Assembly (NCBI GenBank): GCA_000004985.1
Contig: GG739241.1
Length of the DNA stretch: 2,878 bases
Reading direction: 5' to 3' (one strand)
Source of the DNA: Naegleria gruberi
Taxonomy: Eukaryota
In this document: in pieces, positions 1 to 2,003 of the stretch
Layout of the letters: each line of letters starts with the position of its first letter
Position numbering within the stretch: position 1 is the stretch's first letter
The notes under the pieces: model-generated
The model's database searches: none
What the model was told of the DNA's origin: nothing
The model's input: the letters and a program-made list of their open reading frames with translations, nothing else
Program-made: the position numbers and the translations under genes

Positions 1-96
1 ACTCTCATTTCCAATAAAACAAATATTCAAATCAGTCAAGTGTTTCATTTCGCTAACGTGTTTAGCTCCTTCACTTCCACCAATATCAAGCAGAAC
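1..96 (-). pseudogene. Diverged LRR-homologous coding fragment (32 codons open to the window edge). Either a relic unit or the 5' end of a tandem paralog that needs a tiny intron or is pseudogenised.
   Basis: Minus-strand translation of 96..1 is VLLDIGGSEGAKHVSEMKHLTDLNICFIGNES. This matches the repeat consensus (LDISGNRIGDEGAKSISEMKQLTSLNIS) but with different codons (gct aaa cac gtt agc), so it is an older copy. The frame is open to position 1. An in-frame ATG lies at 166-168 (ATGagtttcctctaccaatctcgag…), but TGA codons at 106-108 and 97-99 interrupt it. Confidence 0.35.
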
Positions 97-224
97 TCAT
101 TTCACTCAAATATTTAACTCCTTATAGATCAGCCTGCAAAGACCTCGAGATTGGTAGAGGAAACTCATATTAAATTATGGAATATAAAAGTATATTATGT
201 TAGTATTACTAGATATGAGAGAGA

Positions 225-2003
225 TTAAATATAGAATTCATTAAGTGATGTTAATAATTTTGCTTCATCACTAATTCGATTGGCATAAACATCGAGTGAT
301 GTTAATTGTTTCATTTCACTTATGAATTTGGCTCCTGCATCACCAATTTCATTCTTAGAAATATCAAGTGATGTTAATTGTTTCATTTCACTTATGAATT
401 TGGCTCCTTCAACACCTATTTGATTGCCAGAAATATTAAGTGATGTTAATTGTTTCATTTCACTTATTGATTTGACTCCTTCATCATAAATTAGATTGCC
501 AGAAATGTCAAGTGATGTTAATTGTTTCATTTCACTTATGAATTTGGCTCCTTCACCACCAATTACATTCGTAGAAATATCAAGTGATATTAATTGTTCC
601 ATTTCACTTATAGATTTGACTCCTTCATCACCAATTCGATTGTTAGAAATATCAAGTGATGTTAATTGTTTCATTTCACTTATAGATTTGACTCCTTCAT
701 CACCAATTCCATTCTTATAAATAGTAAGTGATGTTAATTGTTTCATTCCACTTATGAATTTGGCTCCTTCACCATCAATTTCATTCTTGGAAATATTAAG
801 TGATGTTAATTGTTTGATCTCACTTATGAATTTGACTCCTTCACCACCAATTCGATTGTTAGAAATAGTAAGTGATGTTAATTGTTTCATTCCACTTATA
901 GATTTGGCTCCTTCATCATAAATTAGATTGTTAGAAATATCAAATGATGTTAATTGTTTCATTTCACTTATAGATTTGACTCCTTCATCACCAATTCGAT
1001 TGTTATAAATATCAAGTGATGTTAATTGTTTCATTTCACTTATCAATTTGGCTCCTTCATCACCAATTAGATTGCCAGAAATATTAAGTGATGTTAATTG
1101 TTTCATTCCACTTATAGATTTGACTCCTTCTACACCAATTAGATTGCCAGAAATATTAAGTGATGTTAATTGTTTCATTTCACTTATTAATTTGGATCCT
1201 TCTACATCAATTTCATTCGTAGAAATATTAAGTGATGTTAATTGTTTCATTTCACTTATTAACTTGGCTCCTTCACCACCAATTCGATTGTAAAATATGT
1301 CAAGTGATGTCAATTGTTTCATTTCACTTATGAATTTGGCTCCTTCACCACCAATTACATTCGTAGAAATATCAAGTGATATTAATTGTTCCATTTCACT
1401 TATAGATTTGACTCCTTCATCACCAATTCGATTGCCAGAAATATCAAGTGATGTTAAATGTTTCATTCCACTTATAGATTTGGCTCCTTCAACACCAATT
1501 ATATTGTTAGAAATATTAAGTGATGTTAATTGTTTCATTTCACTTATTGATTTGGCTCCTTCTATACCAATTCGATTGCCAGAAATATCAACTGATGTCA
1601 ATTGTTTCATTCCACTTATGAATTTGGGTTGTTCAAATGCATCAAGCGTCCAACTAGAAAATTTAACATTAACAATACAATTCATAAATTGACTCTTCCT
1701 GAATAATTCAATTCTCTTCAATGCAAATTTTTTTTTAAATTGAATAACAAGTTTTGAACGTTCCTTGATCACAGAAAGGAATTGTTTTGAAATCAAGGAA
1801 CAATTATTCAAAATAAACCACGAATCATCAATCATGCAAATTATTTCAAAACAAACATCATCCGAAAATATTTCTTGATCGAGTTTCACAATTTTTTTTG
1901 CTTTCTCTTCCAAATTATTATTATTATTATTATTATTAGTGAATATCTCCTCCGAATTAATGAATTGATGATTTTCAAAATCTTGTCTGTTTCGTTTGCT
2001 CAT
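225..2003 (-). CDS. F-box-like / leucine-rich repeat protein: N-terminal ~125-aa domain with poly-Asn tract and F-box-like motif, then ~19.5 tandem 24-aa RI/CC-type LRRs. Complete ORF, ATG at 2001-2003, TAA at 225-227.
   Basis: Seen in sequence: the longest ORF in the window (592 aa), ATG in an A-rich context (aaaaaaATG), TAA stop. The translation shows 19 consecutive 24-aa units fitting LxxLxLxxNxIGxEGAKxISEMKQ, the RI-like/LRR_6-type consensus. Residues ~41-86 (IFSDDVCFEIICMIDDSWFILNNCSLISKQFLSVIKE) align by eye to the F-box consensus LPdEIlleIfsyLdpkdLlrlrlVcKrWrslv. Residues 23-30 are N8. Product assignment is inferred from motif recognition, not from a database search. Confidence 0.85.
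   Translation of the reverse strand: MSKRNRQDFENHQFINSEEIFTNNNNNNNNLEEKAKKIVKLDQEIFSDDVCFEIICMIDDSWFILNNCSLISKQFLSVIKERSKLVIQFKKKFALKRIELFRKSQFMNCIVNVKFSSWTLDAFEQPKFISGMKQLTSVDISGNRIGIEGAKSISEMKQLTSLNISNNIIGVEGAKSISGMKHLTSLDISGNRIGDEGVKSISEMEQLISLDISTNVIGGEGAKFISEMKQLTSLDIFYNRIGGEGAKLISEMKQLTSLNISTNEIDVEGSKLISEMKQLTSLNISGNLIGVEGVKSISGMKQLTSLNISGNLIGDEGAKLISEMKQLTSLDIYNNRIGDEGVKSISEMKQLTSFDISNNLIYDEGAKSISGMKQLTSLTISNNRIGGEGVKFISEIKQLTSLNISKNEIDGEGAKFISGMKQLTSLTIYKNGIGDEGVKSISEMKQLTSLDISNNRIGDEGVKSISEMEQLISLDISTNVIGGEGAKFISEMKQLTSLDISGNLIYDEGVKSISEMKQLTSLNISGNQIGVEGAKFISEMKQLTSLDISKNEIGDAGAKFISEMKQLTSLDVYANRISDEAKLLTSLNEFYI
505..660. repeat. Higher-order near-identical duplicate block, ~2 LRR units, copy 1 (partner at 1297..1452)
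   Basis: Manual alignment of 505-660 with 1297-1452 gives ~155 bp with 3 mismatches (gttaat/gtcaat, gttaga/gccaga). The offset is 792 bp, exactly 11 x 72. Sequence flanking the block diverges at ordinary inter-unit levels. This is also reflected in the identical N-terminal 46 aa of the antisense ORFs 496..720 and 1297..1692. Confidence 0.8.
1297..1452. repeat. Higher-order near-identical duplicate block, copy 2 (partner at 505..660)
   Basis: Same alignment as above. In protein terms LRR units 3-4 (…SGNRIGDEGVKSISEMEQLISLDISTNVIGGEGAKFISEMKQLTSLDI…) are identical to units 14-15, differing only at one G/N position. Confidence 0.8.
1914..1937 (-). repeat. (ATT)8 / (AAT)8 trinucleotide microsatellite encoding N8 (residues 23-30) inside the CDS
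   Basis: 'attattattattattattattatt' read directly. On the coding strand it is eight consecutive AAT codons (TNNNNNNNNL). Confidence 0.9.

Follow-up and report, generated by a model that had tools for sequence, protein, structure and literature searches.

A Naegleria gruberi gene for a predicted F-box/leucine-rich repeat protein whose repeat units are alike in DNA and diverse at a few codons

We analysed a stretch of 2878 nucleotides (nt) of Naegleria gruberi DNA (contig GG739241.1; 29% G+C), referred to as the window, whose single long open reading frame (ORF) lies on the minus strand at 225..2003 and encodes a protein of 592 amino acids (aa). An open frame of 1776 nt in such AT-rich DNA is not a chance event. 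Most of the protein is made of leucine-rich repeats (LRRs) encoded by 18 full tandem units of 72 nt, which are homogenised in DNA yet diverse in the encoded amino acid at six codons. Selection for diversity among the units is supported by our data, although it is not proven, and the protein is probably an F-box/LRR adaptor. The window contains the following features:

225..2003, minus strand: complete coding sequence of 592 aa (ATG at 2003, stop codon at 225-227) with a poly-Asn head, a predicted divergent F-box and an LRR solenoid.
1914..1938, minus strand: (AAT)8 run, translated as the poly-Asn tract N23-N30 of a disordered N-terminus (Tandem Repeats Finder, TRF, period 3, 8.3 copies; predicted local distance difference test score, pLDDT, <50).
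1752..1874, minus strand: divergent F-box-like three-helix region, aa 44-84, FSDDVCFEIICMIDDSWFILNNCSLISKQFLSVIKERSKL.
1602..1751, minus strand: linker and degenerate capping LRR turns, aa 85-134, with KFISGMKQ as last residues (in the model, strands E85-89 and E110-115, helices H95-102 and H125-130).
306..1601, minus strand: 18 full 72-nt (24-aa) units, aa 135-566, consensus LTSLDISNNRIGDEGAKSISEMKQ, with hypervariable codons 5, 8, 10, 13, 16 and 18.
225..305, minus strand: degenerate unit 19 (LTSLDVYANRISDE-AKL; 305..234), followed by nine residues of a 20th unit (LTSLNEFYI) and by the stop codon.
5..123, minus strand: remnant of the LRR array beyond the stop codon (3′), decayed and frame-shifted, which aligns locally to the 72-nt consensus with three indels.

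In unit k, the codon for position p ends at window base 1601-72(k-1)-3(p-1). TRF described the array as 19.0 copies of period 72 at 263..1627, with 85% matches and 0% indels. An earlier note on this DNA had placed 19 units at 241-1650; this span is roughly right, but the array comprises 18 full units and one degenerate unit, and the gene runs on the minus strand. Unit 19 carries an internal deletion and differs from the other units at 25-33 of its 72 nt; it was left out of the per-position analysis, which covers the 18 full units.

Across these units L1, S3, I6, N9, I11, G15, K17, I19 and S20 are invariant, and T2, L4, E14, M22, K23 and Q24 have one or two exceptions. The strongest variation (1.2-2.5 bits) was found at position 5 (D10 N6 T2; 1.35 bits), position 8 (G6 N5 T3 K3 Y1; 2.13 bits), position 10 (R6 L4 E3 V2 and one each of I, G and Q; 2.49 bits), position 13 (D8 G5 V4 I1; 1.75 bits), position 16 (A10 V7 S1; 1.23 bits) and position 18 (S9 F6 L3; 1.46 bits). 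Positions 7 (S15 Y2 F1; 0.80 bits), 12 (G14 D2 Y2; 0.99 bits) and 21 (E14 G4; 0.76 bits) vary more weakly (0.8-1.0 bit). About 28% of the total entropy falls at positions 5/7/8, about 34% at 10/12/13 and about 22% at 16/18/21, the remainder being scattered. By the Nei-Gojobori method the nonsynonymous difference per site (pN) is 0.340 in the nine variable codons versus 0.027 in the other fifteen. This clustering of variation at a few codons is far from chance. The scaffold residues and the variable positions named in the earlier note were both recovered, every listed scaffold residue being invariant or nearly so; A at position 8 and S at position 12, which it had also listed, come from degenerate unit 19 alone. 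Although T2 and S3 occupy canonical concave-face positions, they are fixed, which the earlier note had left unremarked.

The homogenisation of the nucleotide sequence that the note had described is equally clear. Mean nucleotide identity between units is 86.4%, without indels, and 4-fold degenerate third positions are nearly invariant (mean nucleotide diversity, pi, 0.13; 7 of 11 without any change). The same amino acid is encoded differently at different positions of the unit: glycine is always GGC at position 8, GGT at position 12 and GGA at position 15, and serine is TCA at position 3, TCT at position 7 and AGT at position 20. Because codons are position-specific for one amino acid, the identity at silent sites is identity by descent, and codon-usage bias as its source is ruled out. 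Units 3-4 (1457-1314) and units 14-15 (665-522) differ at only 2 of 144 nt, units 4 and 15 being identical; this two-unit block marks a recent block duplication or gene conversion within the array, in which no other higher-order periodicity was seen. A mechanism resembling that of diversity-generating retroelements was considered and rejected, as the variable nucleotides are not adenine-specific (columns 13, 22-24, 28-29, 38, 47 and 53 of the unit involve all four bases) and the host is a eukaryote.

The array was recognised by Pfam as LRR_6 (3.9e-86, 16 stretches), with L1, L4, I6, N9 and I11 kept in 16-18 of the 18 units. The only non-LRR Pfam matches of the protein were weak ones to DHU1_N and DUF4347 inside the array, with no stretch passing alone. 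The best database matches are N. gruberi proteins, followed by a Ralstonia GALA protein (3.8e-86). Over its first 143 residues the protein shares 68-80% identity with four N. gruberi 'predicted proteins' (P0121-P0124), and F-box-like or F-box is matched by 8 of the 12 family members that were aligned (best 1.9e-6 and 4.9e-7). A profile of this N-terminus found 91 cluster representatives; among the 71 that were scanned, 24 matched F-box-like and 18 F-box, and no other non-LRR domain was present. Searched against the PDB, the profile retrieved only the F-boxes of FBXO42 and FBXO44, at E ∼1. A separate model showed three confident helices immediately before the first LRR turns, and a Foldseek search with this N-terminal model returned nothing significant. 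On this evidence the protein is probably a divergent F-box plus LRR adaptor, which would bind Skp1 and recruit substrates. Among solved structures, the LRR domain of RipG4 is nearest (9j7j; phmmer 1.7e-57 in a gap-free 24-residue register, Foldseek 1.3e-19); ribonuclease inhibitor (RI) and the Chlorobium Roco LRR came next.

Neither the protein nor the contig collections that we searched contained the exact protein; the gene is an unannotated or strain-specific paralogue. The contig collection also yielded no encoding contig for the window protein, P0121, P0007 or P0122, and nothing was found when metagenome contigs were scanned for paralogue DNA with protein guidance and with exact 24-nt words. 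A literature search returned no description of the Naegleria family of this protein and no paper on the RipG4 structure. The four closest relatives, P0121-P0124, are only 215-236 aa long and end within their LRR arrays; repeats that were not assembled or annotated have probably cut these gene models short, and repeat numbers in the family are therefore likely to be under-reported. A near-identical 24-residue module (GAKYISEMKQLTSL) is joined, in place of an F-box, to a protein kinase in P0007 and to an ABC transporter in P0010, and has therefore been shuffled between unrelated architectures in the N. gruberi genome. The best characterised relatives are bacterial: Ralstonia GALA/RipG, Legionella LegL1 and an F-box plus LRR protein labelled Solimicrobium (P0003, P0006, P0055, P0086; PDB 9j7j, 4xa9). 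These bacterial relatives are compatible with gene transfer between amoebae and their bacteria; for GALA, a plant origin was proposed by Kajava et al. (PMC2244805).

An AlphaFold model built from 40 homologues had a mean pLDDT of 84, with values >90 over most of the array, and together with the LRR_6 match it bears out the LRR solenoid that had been claimed from the sequence. Secondary structure assigned by DSSP on this model places a strand at positions 3-5 and a helix at positions 13-19 in 18 of 18 units; the helix extends to position 12 in 8 units and to position 20 in 7, and the rest is coil. In the published GALA-LRR model, whose numbering equals ours minus six, the core positions 5, 10, 13, 19, 22 and 24 correspond to our 11, 16, 19, 1, 4 and 6, the convex outer-helix positions 8, 11, 15 and 17 to our 14, 17, 21 and 23, and position 4 (our 10) belongs to the exposed strand-to-helix loop (Kajava et al., PMC2244805). 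In our model position 5 is thus predicted on the concave sheet, positions 7, 8, 10 and 12 in the ascending strand-to-helix loop around the Asn ladder, and position 13 as the first helix residue. Position 16, which takes only A, V or S, would be a core or helix-packing position. Position 18 lies inside the predicted helix and would face outward, as judged by helix periodicity with 14 and 21 and not by coordinates; position 21 would follow the helix directly on the convex side, placed by the same periodicity and Kajava's GALA model, again not by coordinates. The centre of the concave sheet is uniform, with a fixed Thr-Ser pair at positions 2-3 (0.5 bit and 0 bit).

The structural claim of the earlier note is accordingly half right, whereas its observation of position-specific variation is real and statistically solid. 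The note had confined variation to exposed strand and loop positions, and this does not hold, as 13, 16 and 18 are within the helix in 18 of 18 units and 21 comes just after it. From the set 5, 7, 8 and 10, assigned to the concave ligand-binding face, 5 is on the sheet, but 7, 8 and 10 are in the loop; position 10 in particular comes after the Asn ladder, as part of the ascending loop. The hydrophobic core and the convex back, where variable positions would have spoken against the claim, do hold some of them, with 16 in the core and 18 and 21 on the outer side (the latter two placed without coordinates).

The reading that we find fairly probable is that of a predicted F-box/LRR adaptor with homogenised units, in which selection keeps the units different and thereby produces a specific ligand-binding surface. 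According to this reading, a cytosolic F-box-like/LRR protein of a Naegleria-specific family would dock through its divergent F-box to Skp1 of an SCF (Skp1-cullin-F-box) ubiquitin ligase, and a solenoid of about 21 turns of 24-residue GALA-like LRRs would be its substrate-binding part. The 18 units are recent copies of a single 72-nt module that unequal crossing-over or gene conversion has kept similar, while six codons (5, 8, 10, 13, 16 and 18) carry near-saturating amino-acid diversity, several-fold above the synonymous level within the same 72 nt. Selection keeping the units unlike each other would give the solenoid a non-periodic surface suited to binding a specific ligand. The main stripe would begin at position 5, on the C-terminal edge of the concave sheet, cross the loops (8 and 10) and reach the helix start (13), along the rim by which ribonuclease inhibitor reportedly holds its ligands; variation at 16, in the core under the helix, and at 18, on the outer helix face, would more probably reflect tuning of packing or a second, convex surface.

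Evidence for such selection comes from the comparison of nonsynonymous with synonymous diversity. Over all codons, the Nei-Gojobori estimates are pN 0.139 and pS (synonymous) 0.124, a pN/pS of 1.12; in the fifteen conserved codons pS is 0.063. In the six hypervariable codons, mean pi over first and second positions reaches 0.42. Nonsynonymous diversity at the variable codons is ∼2.7-fold the overall synonymous value and ∼5-fold that of the conserved codons. The earlier note had named variable sites that evolve no faster than synonymous sites as a result that would count against it; the variable codons proved more diverse than synonymous sites. Furthermore, Goldman-Yang codon models were fitted on a neighbour-joining tree of the units, which were treated as paralogues. 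The one-ratio model M0 gave an omega of 0.70 (F3x4) or 1.0 (F1x4). The selection model M2a was preferred over M1a, with twice the log-likelihood difference at 26.7 (F3x4) and 31.0 (F1x4) and p ∼1e-6, and assigned an omega2 of 6.3-7.9 to 22-25% of sites. The posterior probability of omega >1 was at least 0.96 at positions 8, 10, 13, 16 and 18; position 5 reached 0.99, but under F1x4 only. Focus on a subset of positions is also seen in paralogous N. gruberi proteins, which vary at matching positions with similar residue sets.

Several points weigh against this reading. Codon models and simulations were custom code, applied to a tiny alignment of 18 x 24 codons. All four gametes occur at 90 of 190 informative column pairs, some of them only 1-7 nt apart, and as the units are mosaics the single-tree M2a test is fragile; false positives of this test are known under recombination. 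Minimal codon changes amount to 32 nonsynonymous versus 10 synonymous, near the 3.7:1 ratio of sites expected under neutrality, and in the nine variable codons to 25 versus 6, an event-based omega of ∼1.4. The difference in frequency between nonsynonymous and synonymous variants described below is borderline by the Mann-Whitney test (p = 0.058; p = 0.007 by column pi). As to the F-box, the window's own N-terminus has no Pfam match at E up to 10, and the LP motif of F-boxes is replaced by FS. Side-chain exposure and orientation were inferred from DSSP and the published GALA-LRR model (PMC2244805), not from coordinates.

Because the units are mosaics, we added simulations of concerted evolution that are independent of a tree. 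Nine codons (thirteen in one run) evolved neutrally and the rest at an omega of 0.1; homogenisation proceeded by whole-unit replacement, by tracts of mean 24 or 8 nt, or was absent (star-like), and replicates were conditioned on a pS of 0.08-0.17. The observed pN/pS, 1.12 for all codons and 2.75 for the top nine, lay above every retained replicate in the large runs with nine neutral codons (0 of 1974 with whole-unit replacement, 0 of 1545 with 24-nt tracts and 0 of 645 in the star-like case). When 13 codons were neutral, a value of 2.75 was attained by 1 of 185 replicates. The pN/pS of the top six codons, 3.38, was reached by 0-2 replicates. The minimal counts look neutral, and the excess therefore lies in the spread of amino-acid variants among units and not in the number that have arisen: ten nonsynonymous variants are present in 3-7 units, whereas synonymous variants never occur in more than two. 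Such a wide spread is a signature of maintained diversity or recurrent change, not of many unique hits. As the evidence comes from one small mosaic array, selection for diversity among the units is supported but not proven. The earlier note had proposed selection on target binding; the excess of nonsynonymous diversity stands with the caveats given, while we infer that this diversity serves target binding.

Three other explanations have to be weighed. If constraint were merely relaxed, the structurally tolerant 'x' positions of any LRR would undergo neutral drift alongside a conserved scaffold and homogenised DNA, with no selection for diversity or for a target; we regard this as unlikely. Entropy in the array correlates with that in the Naegleria paralogues (Spearman 0.68) and with that in distant LRR hits (0.56). 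The near-neutral ratio of minimal substitution counts and the M0 omega of 0.70-1.0 are also what drift would leave, and in most Ralstonia GALA proteins 50-70% of positions within the LRRs are conserved and the rest neutral (Kajava et al., PMC2244805). However, in 322 units of non-Naegleria hits positions 14, 17, 21, 23 and 24 are as variable as 8 and 10 (2.9-3.5 bits), and 14, 17, 23 and 24 are nearly fixed in the window array; since positions tolerant in these outside units are nearly fixed here, relaxed constraint alone is disfavoured. The same is true of the surface positions 2, 3, 14, 17, 23 and 24 as a set, which carry 2.4-3.2 bits in the wider family and are almost fixed in the array. 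Drift is further at odds with the excess of variable-codon pN over overall pS (∼2.7-fold) and conserved-codon pS (∼5-fold), with a diversity outside almost all neutral simulations at an omega of 1 in 9 or 13 codons, and with the restriction of synonymous variants to at most two units where ten nonsynonymous ones occupy 3-7.

A structural cause of the diversity, in which 13, 16, 18 and perhaps 5 vary for helix packing, curvature or folding without any target recognition, appears quite unlikely. Position 16 aligns with a conserved apolar core position (Kajava position 10) at which small residues permit tight helix packing, and only A, V and S are found there. V16 pairs with S18 and A/S16 with F/L18 (Fisher p = 0.05), and V and non-V residues at 16 tend to alternate along the array (12 switches versus 8.6 expected, p = 0.066); coupling and alternation may indicate compensation in helix packing between neighbouring repeats. 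Narrow residue sets at 5 (D/N/T) and 13 (D/G/V/I) point the same way. On the other hand, 8 and 10, which vary most, sit on either side of the Asn ladder in the exposed loop and accept chemically unrelated residues that packing fails to explain, the 16-18 coupling is weak and absent in paralogues (VKY, AKY, SKF), and no periodic pattern runs along the array at 5, 8, 13 or 18. Finally, the array could be an assembly artefact, a mosaic of reads from paralogous genes that share the 72-nt module. Many N. gruberi proteins bear an almost identical unit, the relatives P0121-P0124 end after 3-4 units as if their arrays had remained unassembled, and the exact protein is missing from the protein and contig collections searched. 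We nevertheless consider an artefact very improbable: the ORF is intact across 1776 nt with 18 units free of indels, the flanks are unique, and the paralogue residues E, H and Y at positions 8/18 are absent from these positions of the 18 full units, save one Y at position 8. Even in a chimeric array, the position-specific pattern would stay a property of the family.

If the signal of selection on this predicted adaptor holds, the gene offers a compact natural LRR array that is homogenised in DNA yet diverse at a few surface codons, and positions 8, 10, 13 and 5 would be the residues of note for the substrates of an uncharacterised, apparently expanded Naegleria adaptor family. The understanding of LRR proteins is unchanged, as a conserved scaffold with variable exposed positions is textbook knowledge; the protein is an uncharacterised amoebal member of the known class of F-box/LRR adaptors, and the sign of selection is a familiar one. 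It is also, within our searches, the eukaryotic protein closest to the Ralstonia GALA and Legionella LRR effectors and, coming from a free-living amoeba, bears on the origin of these effectors. A speculative extension, which we rate as rather improbable, is that the Naegleria F-box/LRR family is a diversified intracellular recognition repertoire, with ubiquitin-ligase adaptors whose hypervariable loops would be selected for the capture of proteins from giant viruses or from intracellular bacteria (Legionella, chlamydiae). A comparable proposal has been made for expanded, positively selected F-box families of nematodes and plants (PMC8120010); if the Naegleria version were true, GALA/RipG and Legionella LegL-type effectors would derive from amoebal, not plant, genes.

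Some further observations concern the remainder of the window. Translated fragments of the remnant at 5..123 read GVKYLSEMSSA and VLLDIGGSEGAKHVSEMKHLTDLNI; this remnant and the internal deletion in unit 19 suggest that the array was formerly longer and that the present stop codon is secondary. N. gruberi paralogues carry shorter, interrupted forms of the poly-Asn tract N23-N30. A perfect 16-nt inverted repeat at 2058-2073 / 2094-2109 (TTTCATCATCACAAGC / GCTTGTGATGATGAAA) with a 20-nt spacer sits in the presumed promoter or 5′ untranslated region, 55-105 nt upstream of the start codon at 2003. Plus-strand ORFs of 55-131 aa over the array were dismissed as antisense readings of the repeat, and Rfam and tRNA scans of the window were empty.

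Compared with known systems, the protein is most similar to the GALA/RipG effectors of Ralstonia solanacearum, in which an N-terminal F-box (here predicted) is likewise followed by 24-residue LRRs. The two have the strand/loop motif LTxLD/NxSxNxIGDxGA in common, including a ladder Asn and the IGD motif; in the 18 units the GALA signature residues are kept as N9 in 18, I11 in 18, G12 in 14, D13 in 8, G15 in 18 and A16 in 10 (V in 7). However, the helix reads GAKSIS-EMKQ versus GAxALA-xNxx in GALA, and at our position 22 (Kajava position 16) 17 of 18 units have Met, where RipG4 has Asn and the GALA-LRR has no conserved apolar residue (PMC2244805). The window protein is moreover eukaryotic and not a secreted bacterial effector, and it has 19 repeats versus about 12, which are far more alike. 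Codon analysis with units as paralogues was also applied to GALA proteins by Kajava et al., who found the selected sites of GALA2 and GALA7 mainly on the convex helix face (our 14, 17, 21 and 23) and at our loop position 10 (PMC2244805). Only position 10 overlaps with the signal in the window, which falls at 5, 8, 10, 13, 16 and 18, with 14, 17 and 23 fixed. GALA-type repeats were placed in the cysteine-containing (CC-LRR) subfamily by the same authors (PMC2244805), and our units are GALA-like members of this subfamily, not strict GALA-LRRs.

The CC-LRR subfamily also includes the FBXL receptors of SCF ligases (Skp2, FBXL2/3/5/17, KDM2A/B, TIR1, COI1), with which the window protein shares an F-box (here predicted) that leads directly into an alpha/beta LRR solenoid. 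The FBXL repeats, typically of 26 residues with a ladder Cys, are individually divergent, whereas those of the window have 24 residues and a ladder Asn and are nearly identical; unlike in FBXL proteins, the F-box lies below the Pfam threshold. Uncharacterised N. gruberi proteins (P0121-P0124, P0007, P0010 and others) have the unit LTSLDISxNxIGxEGxKxISEMKQ in common with the window protein; none is identical to it, and the best full-length identity is low.

The model also resembles ribonuclease inhibitor, an alpha/beta horseshoe, with TM-scores of 0.7-0.75 to RI chains. RI reportedly grips its ligands largely via its strand-to-helix loops (Kobe and Deisenhofer, 1995), and hypervariable positions 8 and 10 of the window sit in the same loops as those said to make the RI contacts. 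RI has alternating A and B repeats of 28-29 residues, whereas the window has a single 24-residue type. Membership of the RI-type LRR class was ruled out by this repeat length and by the warning of Kajava et al. that assigning GALA-type repeats to RI-LRRs is an annotation error (PMC2244805).

With variable lymphocyte receptors (VLRs), plant nucleotide-binding LRR receptors (NLRs) and receptor-like proteins, and internalins the protein shares an LRR scaffold with a conserved core, variable exposed residues and evidence of selection that enhances diversity. Diversity in VLRs, plant NLRs and internalins resides on strand positions 2, 3, 5, 7 and 8. In the window, by contrast, strong variation is limited to 5 and 8 of these positions, and 2 and 3 are fixed. 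Pfam detected no NB-ARC, NACHT or LRRNT/LRRCT caps in the protein, which has no signal peptide and a hydrophilic N-terminus with poly-Asn; unlike in these receptors there is no somatic assembly, and the predicted F-box would be the effector module. The parallel to recognition receptors drawn in the earlier note thus remains an analogy of principle, and the fitting comparison class, given the predicted divergent F-box, is that of F-box/LRR ubiquitin-ligase adaptors. Expanded F-box families with positively selected substrate-binding domains are known in nematodes and plants (PMC8120010).

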